A stretch of DNA of 64,000 nucleotides from an uncultured Acidimicrobiaceae bacterium (GTDB taxonomy: Bacteria; Actinomycetota; Acidimicrobiia; Acidimicrobiales; UBA8190), in contig CAWKDG010000001.1 in NCBI GenBank assembly GCA_963848355.1, positions 413,243 to 477,242 on the forward strand, given 5' to 3'. Shown piece by piece: positions 1,245 through 50,688 of the stretch; within the stretch, counting starts at the first letter, position 1, and each line of letters opens with the position of its first letter. The notes beneath the pieces are model-generated. The model was not told the DNA's origin. It saw only the letters and a list, made by a program, of their open reading frames with translations, and did not search any database. Made by a program: the position numbers and the translations under genes.

Positions 1245-2144
1245 CTATTCGGACACGCGATCGGCCACGGCCAGCATCCACCGGCCGGCGGGCTGGAGCT
1301 GATCCTGCGTATTCAGCAGTCCCGTCGACATCCGCTCGACGACTCCCCACTCCCAGATGGCGGCGGCATCGAGGTGGCACCGCCGTGCCAGCCACCGCGA
1401 CCGCTCGAACGGGTCGCCGTCGAGGAGGTCGAGAGGGTCCTCGCGCATGACGATGCCCATGTCGTACTCGGCTTCGGCCACCAGGCCGTCGGGATCGACG
1501 AGCTTGAAGCCGTCCCCCGCTTCGAGCGTATTCCACTGGTGCACGTCTCCATGGACGAGGACGGCGCGCTCGTCGTCGTGGGCGGCGACGCGACGCTCGG
1601 CGCAGGCCAGGGCATGGTCGACGGCGCGCTCCGTGCACGGGCGCCCGAGCTCCTCCCACGTCAGAGTGATGAAGTCTGCGAGCCAACGGCCTTTCTCGGC
1701 ACCCGTGGGCAGGGCGCACCCCGGTGCCGGACGCCACACCCGCTCGGCCGCCGAGCACAGGATCTCGTGCCGTTGCCCCAGCGGTAGGGCCAGTTCGGAC
1801 AGCGGACGGCCGAGTCTCTCGAGAAGCAGGGCACCACGTGCGTCGTCCTCCCGCAGGAGCTTGACGCAACCCTCTCCAGCGGTCACGCGGAGCACGGTGA
1901 TCTCGTTGCGGGCCGCCTCTCCCGGTCGTGGAACGAGCACCTTCAGCACCACCGGGGTCCCGTCGTGAGCCGTGGCCTCGGCCACGAAGGCCTCTGTGGC
2001 GTCGGCAAAGGGCCGCCCCACGACGATCGACCATGCCCGCTCGAGGTCGGCGATGAGCTCAGGAAGCTCCTCGAGCCACGACCCGGCGCCCAGGGCGACG
2101 GCCGTGCGGCGCACGACAGCGGTGACTTCGATCATCCCGATCAT
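1245..2144 (-). CDS. Aminoglycoside/hydroxyurea antibiotic-resistance kinase family (APH(6)/StrA-like) protein
   Basis: 299 aa with VLVHGDVHQWNTL (HGDxxxxN) followed by FKLVDPDG. Overall layout resembles streptomycin 6-kinase-type proteins. Confidence 0.65.
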   Translation of the reverse strand: MIGMIEVTAVVRRTAVALGAGSWLEELPELIADLERAWSIVVGRPFADATEAFVAEATAHDGTPVVLKVLVPRPGEAARNEITVLRVTAGEGCVKLLREDDARGALLLERLGRPLSELALPLGQRHEILCSAAERVWRPAPGCALPTGAEKGRWLADFITLTWEELGRPCTERAVDHALACAERRVAAHDDERAVLVHGDVHQWNTLEAGDGFKLVDPDGLVAEAEYDMGIVMREDPLDLLDGDPFERSRWLARRCHLDAAAIWEWGVVERMSTGLLNTQDQLQPAGRWMLAVADRVSE

Positions 2145-3039: not shown

Positions 3040-4581
3040 TCAGCGCAACGCCAGCTGGCCGGGAACGAGAGGCGCGGGCAACGCCGTGTCGCCCATCAGC
3101 GCCCGATCGACCCCGGCCGCACACGACCGTCCCTCGGCGATGGCCCACACGATCAGGCTCTGGCCGCGGGTCATGTCCCCGCAGACGAAGACCCGGTCGT
3201 GGCTCGTGGCCCAGTTCCCGTCACAGGCCACGTTGCCGCGGGCATCGAGCTCGAGCTCGAGCTCGGCCACCACCCCGCGCCGCTCCGTGCCCAGAAAGCC
3301 CATGGCCAGGAGCACCAGTTCGCAGGGCAGCTCGAACTCCGTCCCCGCGACGGGCTCCATCACGGGCCGGCCGTCGACGACCGACATCTCGACCTCGTGG
3401 CCGCGCAGCGCGCCGACGGCACCCGTGCCGTCGTCGACGAACTCCGTCGTCGTCACCGCGTAGACACGCTCACCTCCTTCCTCGTGAGCCGACGAGGTGC
3501 GGTAGACGAGAGGCCATGTCGGCCACGGATTGTCGCCGGGGCGGGCGTCGGGGGGCCGGGGCAGGATCTCGAACTGGTGCACCGAGGCGGCCCCCTGCCG
3601 ATGGGTCGTCCCCAGGCAGTCGGCGCCGGTGTCGCCGCCGCCGATGATCACGACGTGCTTGCCCTGCGCCGTGATCGACGGCTCGGCCAACGCTCCCTCG
3701 CGCACCAGGTTCGACGGCTTCAGGTACTCCATGGCTCCGTGCACCCCCCGCAGCTCCCGCCCGGGGACGGGCAGGTCACGCGGCAGCGTGGCCCCGCCGG
3801 CCAGGACGACGGCGTCGAACCGGTCGAGCAACTCCGTGGCCGCCACCACGGCGACGTCGGGGGCGTTCGCCGTCCCCGGCCCTCGCCGCTCCCCCGGTTC
3901 GAGCTCGGCGACCGGCGTGTCCGGTGCCGTCCCCACGGCCGTGGCGCAGCGGAACGTGACCCCTTCGGCCTCGAGCTGGGCCAGACGGCGGTCGAGGACG
4001 GCTTTCTCCATCTTGAACTCGGGGATGCCGTAGCGCAGAAGACCACCGGGCCGCTCGGCGCGTTCGAACACGACGACGTCGTGCCCGGCGCGCGCCAGCT
4101 GCTGGGCGCAGGCCAGTCCCGACGGACCGGATCCGACGACGGCCACCGACCGCCCGGTGCGGACCTCCGCTACCTGGGGCACCACCCACTGCTCGGCGAA
4201 GGCCCGCTCGGCGATCTCGTACTCGACGCGTTCGATGGTGACCGGTTCGGCGTTGATCCCGAGAACGCAGGCCCCCTCGCACGGCGCCGGGCACAGGCGG
4301 CCCGTGAATTCGGGGAAGTTGTTGGTGGCATGGAGGCGCTCGGCCGCCTCTTCCCACTGCCCCCGCCAGACCAGGTCGTTCCACTCGGGGATGAGATTGC
4401 CCAGAGGACACCCTTCGTGGCAGAAGGGAATACCGCAGTCCATGCACCGGGCCCCCTGCTGGCGGGCCGACTCCTCGGGGAACGGCTCGTAGACCTCGCG
4501 CCAGTCCCGGATGCGGACGGGGATGGGGCGGCGCCCGGGAAGACGACGGGGGAACTCGACGAAGCCTGTGGGCTTTCCCAT
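3040..4581 (-). CDS. gltD: Glutamate synthase (NADPH) small subunit
   Basis: 513 aa. MGKPTGFVEFPRR..., Fe-S cysteine motifs (CMDCGIPFCHEGCP), Rossmann motif VAVVGSGPSGLACA. It lies directly downstream of gltB. Confidence 0.9.
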   Translation of the reverse strand: MGKPTGFVEFPRRLPGRRPIPVRIRDWREVYEPFPEESARQQGARCMDCGIPFCHEGCPLGNLIPEWNDLVWRGQWEEAAERLHATNNFPEFTGRLCPAPCEGACVLGINAEPVTIERVEYEIAERAFAEQWVVPQVAEVRTGRSVAVVGSGPSGLACAQQLARAGHDVVVFERAERPGGLLRYGIPEFKMEKAVLDRRLAQLEAEGVTFRCATAVGTAPDTPVAELEPGERRGPGTANAPDVAVVAATELLDRFDAVVLAGGATLPRDLPVPGRELRGVHGAMEYLKPSNLVREGALAEPSITAQGKHVVIIGGGDTGADCLGTTHRQGAASVHQFEILPRPPDARPGDNPWPTWPLVYRTSSAHEEGGERVYAVTTTEFVDDGTGAVGALRGHEVEMSVVDGRPVMEPVAGTEFELPCELVLLAMGFLGTERRGVVAELELELDARGNVACDGNWATSHDRVFVCGDMTRGQSLIVWAIAEGRSCAAGVDRALMGDTALPAPLVPGQLALR

Positions 4582-43522: not shown

Positions 43523-43642
43523 TTCCGGCGACGTCCTACTCTCCCAGGGGGATGCCCCCCAAGTACCATCGGCGCTGGCGAGCTTAACTGCCGTGTTCGG
43601 AATGGGAACGGGTGTGGCCCCGCCGCCATGGTCACCGGAAAC
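43523..43642 (-). rRNA. rrf: 5S rRNA
   Basis: The reverse complement reads GTTTCCGGTGACCATGGCGG…CCCATTCCGAACACGG…GCCGATGGTACT…GGGAGAGTAGGACGTCGCCGGAAT, about 120 nt. Confidence 0.9.
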
Positions 43643-43751: not shown

Positions 43752-43890
43752 GAAAAATTCTCCAAGCCCTCGGCCGATTAGTACCGGTCGGCTGAACACG
43801 TTGCCGTGCTTACACCTCCGGCCTATCAACGTGGTCGTCTAGCCACGGGCCTTACCAGGTTGTCCTGTGGGAGACCTCATCTTGGAACGA

Positions 43891-43922
<32 letters not shown>

Positions 43923-44064
43923 CATCCGTAGGTCGCTAACCAGCCATGCCCTTGGCAGGACAACTGGCACACGAGAGCTACGTCCGTCCCGGTCCTCTCG
44001 TACTAGGGACAGCCTTCCTCAGGTCTCCTACGGCTGCATCGGATAGGGACCGAACTGTCTCACG

Positions 44065-44438
44065 CATGAACTCCCGTATTACTACGGGCATAGACTATAC
44101 CTTCACCCTATTTCTAGGGGCCGGCGTGTCATGGCGTCCGTGAAAGTTGGCGATTACCAACCGTTAATGACGCCATCCCCTCGCTGTGGCTAGCGAGGAA
44201 GTCGTTACAGGGGCACAACACTCCCATGCTACGCAGATGTCGCTCAACATCTGCGGCGAAAATCCGCTTCGTTTTCCGAATAGTTTAGGGCTGCAAAAAC
44301 GCCAGCTTTCTGACGCTTTCCTTGTGTTGGCCTTCCCTCGGTATTGCCCTGATAAGACGTTCGGTTGTCTTGTTCAGGGTTTCACCGATATGAGCCGGTG
44401 TGCACTCAGAAATTACTCTCTGAGGACGCAGTGACACT
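44065..44438 (-). mobile_element. Group I intron, ORF-less, inserted after E. coli-numbering U2593 (L2593)
   Basis: Exon junction GGGTTTAGAACGT|…374 nt…|CGTGAGACAGTTCGG. The insertion follows a U and ends in G. It has an IGS candidate GCGU, a P2-like hairpin CTCAGA…TCTGAG, GAAGGTATAGTC 28 nt from the 3' end, and a terminal hairpin CCCGTA-GTAA-TACGGG. Confidence 0.8.
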
Positions 44439-44461
44439 ACGTTCTAAACCCAGCTCGCGTA

Positions 44462-44497
<36 letters not shown>

Positions 44498-44498
44498 G

Positions 44499-44544
<46 letters not shown>

Positions 44545-44762
44545 TCCCGTCGATATGGACTCTTGGGGAAGATGAGCCTGTTATCCCCGGGGTACCTTTT
44601 ATCCGTTGAGCAACGGCGCTTCCACAAGCCACCGCTGGATCACTATGCCCTGCTTTCGCACCTGCTCGACTAGTAAGTCTCGCAGTCAAGCTCCCTTGTG
44701 CCATTGCACTCGACGGCTGATTGCCAACCAGCCTGAGGGAACCTTTGGGCGCCTCCGTTACG

Positions 44763-44795
<33 letters not shown>

Positions 44796-45080
44796 ACCTG
44801 ACGCTGTTCCCGATCCGGATTACGGACCTGGGTTAGGGCCCCGGCACGAAAAGGGTGGTATTTCAAGGTTGTCTCCACCTCGGCTGGCGCCGAAGCTTCA
44901 AAGACTCCCACCTATCCTACACAATCCGTACCAAAGCTCAACATCAAGCTGCAGTAAAGGTCCACGGGGTCTTTCCGTCCTGATGCAGCTAACGAGCATC
45001 TTTACTCGTACTTCAATTTCGCCGGGTCTGTGGTTGAGACAGTGGGAAAGTCGTTACGCCATTCGTGCAGGTCGGAACTT

Positions 45081-45880
<800 letters not shown>

Positions 45881-46394
45881 CCCGTTACCCCCATATCGCT
45901 ATGAGGCGTGGACCATATCTTCATCCACCCGGCTTCACGGGTGGAGCTCTGCGTATGGCCTCTGAGGATTCCTCATCCCTCAATACGTCGGGGACTTAAC
46001 CCCGTCATACAGTCGCCTTCCGCTCCGGTGTCATTCGTCCTTTATGCGAAGGTTCGAACGATACCGACATGCGTCGACGAGCTGACTGGCAGACGAACGC
46101 TTTGATCGCGGCAAGCCGCGATCACGCTCTCGGTGGATTGGGACGCTGAAGCTTCCCTCTCCATCGACGATTCCGACGATCCAGTTCCCAGATCGTTGGA
46201 ATCGATCAAACCAGTATGAGGAACCAGGTCTTTCCTGCTGATTGTCCGCACCGGACGGATTGTCACTCACCATGTCACTCCCCTATTTGGGGTGTCACAA
46301 CATGGCGAGTACCGCCGGATACTCGGGGTTTCCAGCATATAGCAGAGTTTGTTCCAGACAGTTACCCGTCTGGAGCCGCAACTGTGTGCATTTT
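45881..46394 (-). mobile_element. Group I intron with a decayed LAGLIDADG ORF, inserted after U1911
   Basis: Exon junction AAACGGCGGCCGT|…514 nt…|AACTATAACGGTCCTAAGG. Only this register gives a 5' exon U plus a terminal G. It has an IGS candidate GCGGCU (6 bp with GGCCGU), the P2-like hairpin CCAGAC…GTCTGG, GAAGATATGGTCC 29 nt from the 3' end, and a hairpin with a GCGA loop. Confidence 0.75.
46031..46273 (-). pseudogene. Truncated LAGLIDADG homing endonuclease remnant
   Basis: 80-aa ORF with WIVGIVDGEGSFSV, then a premature stop. The remaining intron space is too short for a full ~150-aa enzyme. Confidence 0.65.
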
Positions 46395-47298
46395 ACGGCC
46401 GCCGTTTACCGGGGCTTAGGTTCACAGCTTCGCCCGAAGGCTAACCGTTCCCCGTAACCTTCCGGCACCGGGCAGGCGTCAGAGCGTATACATCGTCTTA
46501 GGACTTCGCACGCTCCTGTGTTTTTAGTAAACAGTCGCTTTCCCCTATTTTCTGCGGCCCCCTCAGGCTCAGGACGCGAAGTCCTTCACCCTGGCGGGGC
46601 CCTCCTTCTCCCGAAGTTACGGAGGTATTTTGCCGAGTTCCTTAACCACAGTTCTCCCGATCGCCTTGGTATTCTCTACCCGCCCACCTGTGTCGGTTTG
46701 GGGTACGGGCACCATGTCAGCTCGCTAGAGGCTTTTCTCGGCAGCATGGGATTAGTGACTTCGCCTGAACGGCTCGGCATCGCGTCTCAGGATTAACGGG
46801 GTCCGGATTTGCCTAGACCCCTCCCTACACGCTTACCCCAGGACAACCAACGCCTGGGCTCACCTACCCTCCTGCGTCCCCTCTTCGCTATCCGCCACGG
46901 GATCGGTCGGTTCGGCCCGAAGGCCAGCCCCTTAGGAGTCCCATATTGGATTGGGCGCGGACACGGTGGTGCTGGAATATCAACCAGCTGTGCATCGACT
47001 ACGCCTCTCGGCCTCGCCTTAGCTCCCGACTCACCCTGGGTGGATTAGCCTTCCCCAGGAACCCTTGGGCTTACGGCGGAGGGGTTTCTCACCCCTCTCT
47101 CGCTACTCATACCAGGATTCTCACTCGAACCCGCTCCACGACGGTTCACACCCCCGCTTCACGGCTGAGTTCGACGCTCCCCTACCACTCCTACCCGTAA
47201 TTCCTGAAGCGGCACCGCAAGCGGTACGTCTTCAGGCGGAATAGAAATCCGCAGCTTCGGCTTTTGGCTTGAGCCCCGTTACATTGTCCGCGCAGGAC

Positions 47299-47346
<48 letters not shown>

Positions 47347-47987
47347 GAGCCAACCTCCTGGCTGTCTTTGCGTTCCCACATCGTTTTCCACTTAGCCAAA
47401 AATTTGGGGCCTTAGCTGGCGGTCTGGGCTGTTTCCCTTTCGACCAACGAAGCTCATCCCTCGTGGTCTCACTGCCGGGCTCTGGAGCATCGGCATTCGG
47501 AGTTTGATTGGGGTCGGTAAGCTTGTAGGCCCCCTAACCCATTCAGTGCTCTACCTCCGATGCTGAACGCCCGACGCTGCACCTAAATGCATTTCGGGGA
47601 GAACCAGCTATCACCGAGTTTGTTTGGCCTTTCACCCCTATCCACAGGTCATCCCCCCTGTTTTCAACCAGGGTGGGTTCGGCCCTCCACGGGGTCTTAC
47701 CCCCGCTTCAGCCTGCCCATGGATAGATCACTCGGCTTCGGGTCTACCACATGCGACTGTACGCCCTATTCAGACTCGCTTTCGCTCCGGCTCCCCCTCT
47801 CGGGTTAACCTCGCCACACACGGTAACTCCCTGGCTCATTCTTCAAAAGGCACGCCATCACGGCCGGCGTAGGCCCACGTGGCGGTCCCATCTCACCGAA
47901 GTGAAACGAGACACGCGTGAGTGGGCGCCGGCGACGCTTTGACTGATTGTAAGCCAACGGTTTCAGGTACTATTTCACTCCCCTCCC

Positions 47988-48021
<34 letters not shown>

Positions 48022-48710
48022 CCGCTATCGGTCGCCTGAGAGTACTTAGCCTTACGAGGTGGTCCTCGCAGATTCACACCGGCTTTCCCGGATCCGGCGC
48101 TACTTGGGAAATCCAACTGGAGATCTCTAACCCTTCGCGTACGGGGTTCTTACCCTCTGTGACGTGGTGTTCCAAACCACTTCTGCTGAGTTGAGATTTT
48201 GTAACTCCATGACGGGTCTGGTGCCCCATCTGTCGGCTCCCACGACCCCGAACTGGCAACGCCACCAGGCTTGACACCAGTTCGGTTTAGGCTCTTCCCG
48301 TTTCGCTCGCCGCTACTCAGGGAGTCGCTGTTGCTTTCCTCTCCTCGGGGTACTGAGATGTTTCAATTCCCCCGGTTCCCTCTCCCGGTGCTATGTGTTC
48401 ACACCGGAGTGACACCCCATGACGGGTGCCGGGTTTCCCCATTCGGACATCCACGGATCGAAGCTTGGTCGGCAGCTCCCCGTGGCTTTTCGCAGCCTCC
48501 CACGTCCTTCTTCGGCTTCAGGCGCCTAGGCATCCACCGTTGGCTCTTTGTAGCTTGGAGAACAAAGATGCTCGTGCTCGCTATGGAATTCTCAAGGGAC
48601 GCGCGGCGCCCCGGCAGCGAGAAATCGAGCTGGGGGCAGGCCGAACGGATACGCGAGCGGCCGACCGCCTAAAAGAGACGATCGGCATCGCGACGGAAGT
48701 GACGATGTCA

Positions 48711-48884: not shown

Positions 48885-50413
<1,529 letters not shown>

Positions 50414-50688
50414 GAGATCTTCGCCACCCACCCGAAGGCGATGTCGAAAATCGGAGAGCCGGTTCGGGTCTAGCTACCCCTCACCGACTGGCACAGCACA
50501 GATTGTTGTCCGTGACAGTGCTTAATTACTTAGGTTCAACTGTGTGGCACGCCGAAGCGAGCCGCGCAGTTGCCCGCACTGGCTTTTGGCTCTCACTATT
50601 CCGTTTTCAAGGAGCGACGCGACACTCACCACTTACTGAGGCGTTGGTGCCGGATTCCCGCGATTGGTTGCCCGACCGGGGGATCGTC

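Follow-up and report, generated by a model that had tools for sequence, protein, structure and literature searches.

Group I introns with LAGLIDADG endonuclease genes in domains IV and V of 23S ribosomal RNA (rRNA) are textbook mobile elements, and bacterial rRNA introns have usually been described for a few thermophiles, intracellular pathogens, giant sulfur bacteria, and bacteria of the candidate phyla radiation (CPR). Here, we analyze a 514-nucleotide (nt) insertion in the 23S rRNA gene on a 64,000-nt stretch of contig CAWKDG010000001.1 (hereafter, the window). The insertion lies between U1911 and A1912, a site designated L1911, and it is very probably a group I intron that belongs to a widespread, apparently unnamed family of bacterial rRNA introns. 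The endonuclease-carrying intron sites of bacterial 23S genes compiled in 2007 were L1917, L1931, L1951, and L2593 (PMC1995217). In CPR bacteria, the frequent 23S sites with LAGLIDADG_1 genes are 1917, 1931, 1952, 2593, 2604, and 2657, and the supplement of that study holds no entry at 1910 to 1914 (PMC11270868). An archaeal survey includes 1923, 1931, 2500, and 2593 among its large-subunit sites.

The Insertion Site in Helix 69

The window contains one rRNA operon, on the minus strand (Rfam), and its 23S rRNA gene is 4803 nt long, compared with the 2925 positions of the Rfam model. The 514-nt insertion runs from 46394 to 45881 on the minus strand. With a slash at each splice site, its junctions read ...AACGGCGGCCGU(46395)/A(46394)AAAUGCACACAGUUGCGGCUC and GGGGGUAACGGG(45881)/A(45880)ACUAUAACGGUCCUAAGGUAGCG, or, in a longer reading, ...AACGGCGGCCGU/AAAAUGCACACAGUUGCGGCUC at the 5′ end and GGGGGUAACGGG/AACUAUAACGGUCCUAAGGUAGCG at the 3′ end. 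The numbering was checked on an Escherichia coli rrl gene (2906 nt, 2 nt longer than the reference), with A2058 as the anchoring landmark. After anchoring, the U of GGCCGU is U1911 (1913 in the uncorrected count of the strain) and the U preceding the next insertion is U1951. The features at the site are as follows.

45881–46394, minus strand: group I intron at L1911, 514 nt, first base A at 46394 and omega-G at 45881 (Rfam RF00028, homologues, covariation)
46395–46400, minus strand: 5′ exon strand of P1, GGCCGU, which is 23S G1906–U1911 and the 5′ strand of the helix 69 stem (P1 pairing invariant in the L1911 family)
Intron-less form of the L1911 site: GTAAACGGCGGCCGT/AACTATAACGGTCCTAAGG

Three placements of the insertion, after 1911, 1912, or 1913, agree equally well with the aligned sequences, since the intron opens with AA and the 3′ exon with AAC. 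The chemistry of group I introns demands that a U·G pair mark the 5′ splice site and that the intron close with G, and the 1911/1912 register is the only one in which the 5′ exon ends in U and the intron ends in G. The 5′ splice site is directly after U1911 (46395). The element is not an L1917 intron, as the 3′ exon starts with AACUAUAACGG (1912 onward), leaving bases 1912–1917 downstream of the intron. Helix 69 (H69) comprises positions 1906–1924, with a stem of 1906–1911/1919–1924 and a loop of 1912–1918 (PMC2602781). Therefore, the L1911 intron sits at the top of the H69 stem, at the stem-loop junction.

Much of this had been proposed in an earlier sequence-only reading of the window, which placed the insertion at the same coordinates and after U1911, with a 6-base-pair (bp) P1 formed by GGCCGU and GCGGCU. 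Our analyses recovered a 514-nt insert at exactly 45881–46394 and the P1 guide strand at 46374–46379, and the register is upheld by the splice-site rules, the invariant guide GUU-GCGGCY, and a covarying P9.0 that reaches the terminal G. That reading erred in putting the site at the base of H69. Nor is the site rare in sequence data, as the survey described below shows.

A Family of Introns at L1911

Relatives were sought with a pattern consisting of G followed by 23S bases 1912–1935 (GAACTATAACGGTCCTAAGGTAGCG). This pattern selects introns that end in G at L1911 because intron-less genes have T1911 at that position. The scan covered 185,579 species-representative genomes, a set without the source genome of the window, plus metagenomes. 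It matched 11 genome loci, 10 of which are L1911 introns, and 76 metagenome loci, with ∼65 metagenome contigs carrying the intron. L1911 introns are thus not rare in sequence data. A complete homologous intron that starts right after GGCCGT and ends in G is present at 60 loci, representing 50 distinct cores, and ∼15 further family loci are cut by contig ends. The core of the window intron is 74–81% identical to the 49 other distinct introns at the site. The 10 species-level genome hosts belong to the Actinomycetota (6), Omnitrophota (2), Chloroflexota (1), and Fraserbacteria (1), and most family copies come from uncultured Actinomycetota in environmental metagenomes. Family members without an open reading frame (ORF) are 226–265 nt long, partial members 308–414 and 513/514 nt, and full-size members 728–741 nt.

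In the internal guide sequence, GUU and GCGGC do not vary among the 50 distinct members, and the last base of the guide is U or C, both of which pair with G1906. The guide GUU-GCGGCY is thus shared by every correctly aligned member, and its GCGGCY pairs with 1906–1911 and places a G opposite U1911. The U1911·G pair was found in 14/14 short members and in 48/50 members of the core alignment; in the other two (L004 and L037), long 5′ inserts have caused a misalignment, and both read GGCCGU/. The terminal G is present in all 50 members, and 49 of them start with AA.

RNAalifold analysis of the 50 cores recovered P1, P2, P3, P4, P5, P5a–c, P6, P8, P9, and P9.0 with abundant compensatory changes, and the covariation of P9.0 extends up to the base before the terminal G. 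The program also drew a helix between the 3′ strand of P7 and the 3′ exon, which was rejected: it cannot draw the P3/P7 pseudoknot, and P7 was tested by hand instead. This check showed conservation of P7 (GRCCAU/AUGGUC), including one CG-to-UA compensation, and neither J6/7 nor J8/7 varies. Pairing statistics were obtained from an independent alignment of the 14 short members with 69 pairs. In this alignment, 94.7% of the cells are paired, versus 33–48% when the partners are slid by 1–3 columns, and 35 of the 69 pairs show changes on both sides. None of 500 shuffles reached the observed paired percentage, either double-change count, or the covariation score, while the observed count of further pair types was reached in 40 of the 500.

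Several loci that matched the pattern are not introns. The 23S gene of L001, from an Afifella metagenome-assembled genome (MAG; match at 3105–3129), lacks the region upstream of 1912, through either a deletion or an assembly gap. L024, L053, and L061 are 23S genes with G instead of U at 1911, and one base of GGCCGU is missing in L014, L026, and L087. Two further loci are irregular. In L049 (contig Ga0208220_1005067), ∼300 nt upstream of the match at 4033–4057, the first 12 nt of the intron copy exon 1912–1923 exactly (GGCCGT/AACTATAACGGTTGGCTTC...), and the guide has lost CG (GUUG-GCUU), which removes the U1911·G pair of P1. Either crippling of the intron or a scar left by recombination may explain this arrangement. 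By 16S, the host of L049 is the closest to that of the window, and the 5′ exon of its 23S gene is 88.7% identical to that of the window, the best of the set. In the first ∼460 nt of L058 (contig Ga0181526_10154056), an L1911 3′ end is followed by exon 1912–1933, a related core with a deleted endonuclease gene, and an L1911 3′ end again, an arrangement explained by chimeric assembly or, alternatively, by a related intron at ∼L1931–1933.

Anatomy of the Window Intron and Proposed Splicing Mechanism

The family helices were located in the window intron as follows (all on the minus strand).

46374–46382, minus strand: internal guide sequence GUU-GCGGCU (GUU + GCGGC invariant in 50/50 distinct members)
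46380–46382, minus strand: GUU, which forms P10 with exon A1912–C1914 (GUU/AAC invariant)
46374–46379, minus strand: GCGGCU, which forms P1 with exon 1906–1911, including the G·U1911 wobble (family-wide pairing)
46354–46373, minus strand: P2 hairpin, CCAGACGG-GUAA-CUGUCUGG, with a GNRA loop (compensatory changes in 8/8 pairs)
46236–46347, minus strand: P3 5′ strand and P4-P5-P5a-P5b/c domain (family pair counts and the fold of the window intron itself)
46342–46347, minus strand: P3 5′ strand
46332–46337 with 46236–46241, minus strand: P4
46324–46326 with 46246–46248, minus strand: P5
46312–46318 with 46251–46258, minus strand: P5a
46266–46309, minus strand: P5b/c hairpin
45960–46235, minus strand: P6 region and extension, enclosing the endonuclease gene remnant (P6 covariation in the family)
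46233–46235 (GGA) with ∼45966–45968 (UCC of AAUCC), minus strand: P6
46217–46228 with 45971–45982, minus strand: P6a/b
45881–45960, minus strand: 3′ half of the catalytic core (P7 compensation; J6/7 and J8/7 invariant; P8, P9, and P9.0 covary)
45955–45960 (GGCCAU) with 45911–45916 (AUGGUC), minus strand: P7
45947–45952 (GCAGAG), minus strand: P3′
45924–45945, minus strand: P8
45917–45923 (UGAAGAU), minus strand: J8/7
45889–45906, minus strand: P9, with a GCGA loop
45907–45910 (CACG) with 45881–45884 (CGGG), minus strand: P9.0, with omega-G at 45881

The minimum-free-energy fold of the window intron (z = −8.7) reproduces the family helices. Moreover, of 103 positions with a conservation of at least 94% in the rest of the family, the window copy retains 102, and the sole deviating position, the base before the terminal G, deviates likewise in L007 and L010. 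Thus, the ribozyme of the window copy looks intact, as judged from its sequence.

From this conserved anatomy we infer the following mechanism. In the pre-rRNA, the guide GCGGCU would pair with exon GGCCGU to form P1, in which the U1911·G wobble would mark the 5′ splice site. A free guanosine held in P7 would attack this site, the terminal G (45881), positioned by P9.0, would then enter the G-site, and pairing of GUU with exon AAC (P10) followed by exon ligation would restore H69. Splicing of the window intron in vivo is accordingly presumed. In the full-size relatives, the encoded enzyme would act as a homodimer that cuts intron-less 23S rDNA and spreads the intron by homing. The window copy, presumably immobile, would no longer home on its own and would persist by vertical descent, because its ribozyme must work for rRNA maturation.

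The Endonuclease Gene in Intact Relatives and in the Window

Among the 36 family introns of 728–741 nt, 34 contain an uninterrupted ORF of at least 169 amino acids (aa) with a LAGLIDADG motif. The insert in P6 is ∼480 nt in these full-size relatives, where the P6 loop encodes a single-motif LAGLIDADG_1 protein of ∼198 aa, and P6 is a short hairpin in the ORF-less relatives. The intact reading frame starts within P5b/c and continues across P6′, P7, P3′, and P8 into P9, and it overlaps the core of the ribozyme at either end. Against PF00961, intact relatives give E = 3e-13 and 2.3e-21, with profile positions 1–101 of 102 covered, and the enzyme resembles each half of I-SmaMI and I-OnuI as well as the single-domain protein of PDB 5gkk. 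In a large protein collection, 2181 clusters match the enzyme at E ≤ 1e-10; the best of these, at least 120 clusters (clustered at 90% identity), are 74–96% identical to the L007 enzyme, are almost all 198 aa long, and carry generic names only. No characterized enzyme of the L1911 family was found in the searchable literature. The intact relatives are possible new meganucleases with a presumed cleavage activity. In one full-size intron, L006 (1448–2183; long-contig MAG), the endonuclease gene is intact except for one frameshift, which reflects either early decay or a sequencing error.

In the window, only parts of this gene are present.

46031–46273, minus strand: 80-codon ORF, a single-motif LAGLIDADG remnant (N-terminal identity to intact enzymes)
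46271–46273, minus strand: ATG of the remnant, inside the P5b/c 3′ strand
46148–46174, minus strand: motif GIVDGEGSF
46031–46033, minus strand: premature TGA
46101–46124, minus strand: deletion junction (46102/46101) and inverted repeat (family alignment columns 312–525)
45978–46101, minus strand: decayed C-terminal part of the gene, out of frame and interrupted by stops (DNA identity, no protein-level match)

The remnant keeps the LAGLIDADG helix with its acidic catalytic residue, WIVGIVDGEGSF aligning with YIAGFVDGEGSF of the intact enzymes, and its residues 1–55, up to RDRGLP, are 66–72% identical to them. Between 46102 and 46101, ∼214 nt of the intact relatives (∼70 codons, encoding DNA-binding sheets) are absent. 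The next ∼124 nt are 46–55% identical to the relatives at the DNA level, compared with 74% between the full-length L006 and L007 and with 68–70% for the N-terminal remnant. The 80-aa product gave no Pfam hit at E ≤ 0.01, PF00961 included, and its homology was therefore shown through the intact relatives. The window appears to hold a LAGLIDADG_1 remnant rather than a member of the family, and its endonuclease is, on these sequence comparisons, evidently dead while the surrounding ribozyme appears intact.

The sequence-only reading had described an 80-codon ORF that contains GIVDGEGSF and stops early, had called it a decaying LAGLIDADG gene, and had assigned it to the degeneration phase of the homing cycle. 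The ORF is present at 46031–46273 on the minus strand. Comparison of the remnant and its continuation with full-length enzymes substantiates the decay, as the match extends over ∼55 N-terminal codons to RDRGLP, ∼214 nt are then lost, and the scrambled C-terminal remnant gives no protein match. Intact, partly deleted, and ORF-less forms all occur at L1911, and the window copy therefore fits the degeneration phase.

Directly at the deletion junction lies a perfect inverted repeat of 10 nt whose loop is 2 nt long (46103–46124). In L011, the other relative with a deleted gene, the frame continues into another tail and terminates at another stop. The deletion boundaries of the window and L011 are nearly identical, but their cores share only 74% identity, less than the 81% that each shares with the full-length L052. 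The homologous junction of L011 (∼2445–2470) bears a perfect hairpin of a different sequence and of 6 bp (GUGGCA-GGA-UGCCAC), and the intact relatives have only a short inverted repeat at that position. The two deletions possibly descend from one old deletion or arose at a hairpin-associated hotspot; near-identical boundaries in two related hosts could thus point either to a hotspot of deletion or to a dead endonuclease gene that has persisted for a very long time. The idea that the dead ORF evolved into hairpins that help folding was rejected, as the intact insert of L007 has z = −6.9, compared with −6.0 and −5.8 for the remnants. A further inverted repeat, of 14 nt and 93% complementary, lies at 46168–46204, upstream of the LAGLIDADG motif and overlapping its first codons; here, the window peptide FDRFQRSGNWIV departs from the family consensus LDxIPxDLGHYIA.

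Other Introns of the 23S Gene and the Host

The rRNA genes and the remaining introns of the operon are the following.

48891–50415, minus strand: 16S rRNA gene (Rfam model match over full length, 1564.3 bits)
43758–48560, minus strand: 23S rRNA gene (Rfam model match over full length, 2627.7 bits)
43523–43639, minus strand: 5S rRNA gene (Rfam model match over full length, 107.8 bits)
45841–45880, minus strand: 40-nt exon, 23S 1912–1951, between the L1911 and L1951 introns (its first three bases, AAC, form P10)
45081–45840, minus strand: group I intron after U1951, 760 nt, GUCGGGU/AAGAAGUUGCC...GAUAACGACG/AAGUUCCGACC
44065–44438, minus strand: group I intron after U2593, 374 nt, no ORF, GAACGU/AGUGUC...GUUCAUG/CGUGAGACAG (Rfam Intron_gpI, 39.4 bits)

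The L1951 intron contains an ORF (45112–45669, 185 aa) for an apparently intact LAGLIDADG_1 protein (Pfam E = 3.2e-21) that is 32% identical to the L1911-family enzyme. All three introns keep the 5′ exon U and the terminal G, and together with expansions near 270–370, 540, and 1400 they add ∼1.9 kb to the 23S gene. The 16S rRNA of the window is 94.8–94.9% identical to that of L011 (Actinomycetota MAG) and L050, and partial matches show 95.1% identity to L049 and 94.1% to L010 (Acidimicrobiia MAG). Hence, the host is most likely an Acidimicrobiia-like actinobacterium.

Alternative Explanations

Several points weigh against an intact, self-splicing group I intron with a dead endonuclease gene. 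The Rfam Intron_gpI model (RF00028) matches the window copy at 45889–46404 on the minus strand with 34.7 bits (E = 3.3e-7), which is below the gathering score of 50. However, the P6 insert of the window (257 nt) penalizes this score, and the shortfall appears to reflect the insert and not the core, because ORF-less homologues score 51.7–71.6 bits (L003, 51.7; L009, 64.7; and L008, 71.6, all above the gathering score). P9.0 of the window has one A·G mismatch beside the terminal G, a mismatch shared by L007 and L010, whose ORFs are intact. Splicing in the host is presumed, a non-functional operon copy is conceivable, as the genome may have further rRNA operons, and so is a residual role for the 80-codon ORF, which keeps its ATG and the region of the catalytic motif. 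If the whole operon copy were a decaying pseudogene, its introns would not need to splice, and the three introns and the expansions would fit such decay. Yet the 23S, 16S, and 5S genes match their models over full length, all three introns keep the exon U and terminal G, and the L1911 core has kept its conserved positions while the enclosed ORF decayed, which indicates that selection acts on the ribozyme; we therefore consider a pseudogene highly improbable. It is also very unlikely that the ORF encodes a short protein that still functions, for instance a maturase-like stub that binds RNA or a subunit fragment under selection. In its favor, the start codon, the 55 N-terminal codons, and the motif are preserved, the N-terminal part better so than the C-terminal part, and maturase-like activity is reported for the LAGLIDADG protein encoded in a Thermotoga 23S intron (PMC3984707). 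But the beta-sheets that make up both the fold and the surface for binding nucleic acids were lost in the deletion, the remnant lacks any Pfam match, and L011 differs in both tail and stop. The first ∼15 codons would be conserved anyway, as they double as ribozyme P5a/P5/P4/P6, and the ORF-less members show that the ribozyme needs no such peptide.

Two other readings concern the nature and the placement of the insert. If the insert were an RNase III-type intervening sequence (IVS), no ligation would follow its excision, and the 23S rRNA would be left in fragments. IVSs are the commoner kind of bacterial 23S insertion, insertions of some sort occurring in 18.5% of non-CPR RefSeq 23S genes (PMC11270868), and the 23S gene of the window has other expansions. 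An IVS is an extended stem-loop in a variable helix with no catalytic core, whereas the group I core of the insert is complete and all of its helices covary, its guide matches both exons, and its homologues exceed the Rfam threshold. It also lies in the universally conserved and functionally critical H69, where fragmentation in the loop would be very unusual. An IVS is thus extremely improbable. The intron could instead be real with its junction after A1912 or A1913, and hence not at L1911. Purely alignment-based methods would choose such a register, and the AA start of 49/50 members next to an exon starting with AAC makes the three registers yield one spliced product. Against this stand the combination of a U·G pair and a terminal G, which only 1911/1912 gives and which is found in every member with a correctly aligned 5′ end, the invariant guide, which complements GGCCG(U)AAC with G opposite U1911, and the covariation of P9.0 up to the base before the terminal G. 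A shifted junction is very improbable, and the assignment of a group I intron to L1911 is retained.

Discussion

The name "L1911" for an intron was not found in the searchable literature, and neither was anything on actinobacterial 23S introns; the intron tables of the Comparative RNA Web (CRW) site and GISSD lay outside that search. The earlier suggestion that the site is not catalogued therefore stands as likely, no paper naming an L1911 intron having been found. Going further, we lean slightly toward the view that L1911 is an undescribed 23S site that defines a multiphylum lineage with its own 198-aa homodimeric LAGLIDADG enzyme targeting the 5′ side of H69 rDNA. If true, this would be a new natural meganuclease specificity for a highly conserved target, and the family would offer a natural series from intact through deleted to ORF-less introns.

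Elements of this kind are very well known; what is new is the site-family, which public environmental data contain in abundance, and the window copy appears to be an ordinary, immobilized member of it. The family extends the known distribution of bacterial rRNA introns and adds a further insertion site, the H69 stem-loop junction (intersubunit bridge B2a), which is unnamed in the searchable literature and well populated, with 60 complete copies and at least 120 endonuclease clusters at 90% identity. In practical terms, a three-intron 23S gene of 4.8 kb will confuse rRNA annotation and primer-based surveys.

Among described systems, the introns Cbu.L1917 and Cbu.L1951 of Coxiella burnetii (Raghavan et al. 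2007) offer a close parallel. They resemble the window in that two group I introns in domain IV of the 23S gene flank a tiny exon, of 34 bp in Coxiella and 40 nt in the window (1912–1951), and in both the downstream intron is at L1951 with a LAGLIDADG gene (PMC11270868, PMC1995217). The upstream intron follows U1917 in Coxiella, in contrast to U1911 in the window, and one Coxiella intron lacks the terminal G, as stated in a paper title, whereas the window intron has a canonical one. Unlike Coxiella, the host of the window is a GC-rich, actinobacterium-like organism, and the likeness to the Coxiella introns is drawn from their description.

The L1917 introns of Synechococcus sp. C9 and Thermotoga subterranea likewise occupy the H69 hairpin of bacterial 23S rRNA (PMC1995217), and L1911 is six bases upstream of their site. 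They are 743–774 nt long, compared with ∼730 nt for full L1911 members, and both families carry a single-motif LAGLIDADG gene in P6 whose frame runs through P7, P3, and P8 into P9 (PMC1995217). L1917 introns were, however, described without P2 (PMC1995217), and P2 of the L1911 family covaries strongly, a comparison of the families by description only. The rRNA introns of CPR bacteria are similar in carrying LAGLIDADG_1 genes within group I introns at conserved 23S sites with very similar flanks, and some of their ORFs have large deletions and some of the introns are ORF-less (PMC11270868). The CPR site list has nothing at 1911–1913 (PMC11270868), and the genome hosts of L1911 introns are Actinomycetota, Chloroflexota, Omnitrophota, and Fraserbacteria.

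Finally, I-Vdi141I, from the archaeal intron L1927, and I-PpoI exploit the conserved H69 rDNA (PMC2602781), as does the L1911 family. Of these, I-Vdi141I (PDB 3e54) is a single-motif LAGLIDADG enzyme that acts as a homodimer; the L1911 enzyme matches it distantly (E = 2.3e-6) and is much closer in sequence to the I-SmaMI and I-OnuI halves and to PDB 5gkk. The target of I-Vdi141I and I-PpoI is 1915–1938, on the 3′ side of H69 (PMC2602781), whereas the L1911 enzyme must recognize the 5′ side, ∼1900–1922.

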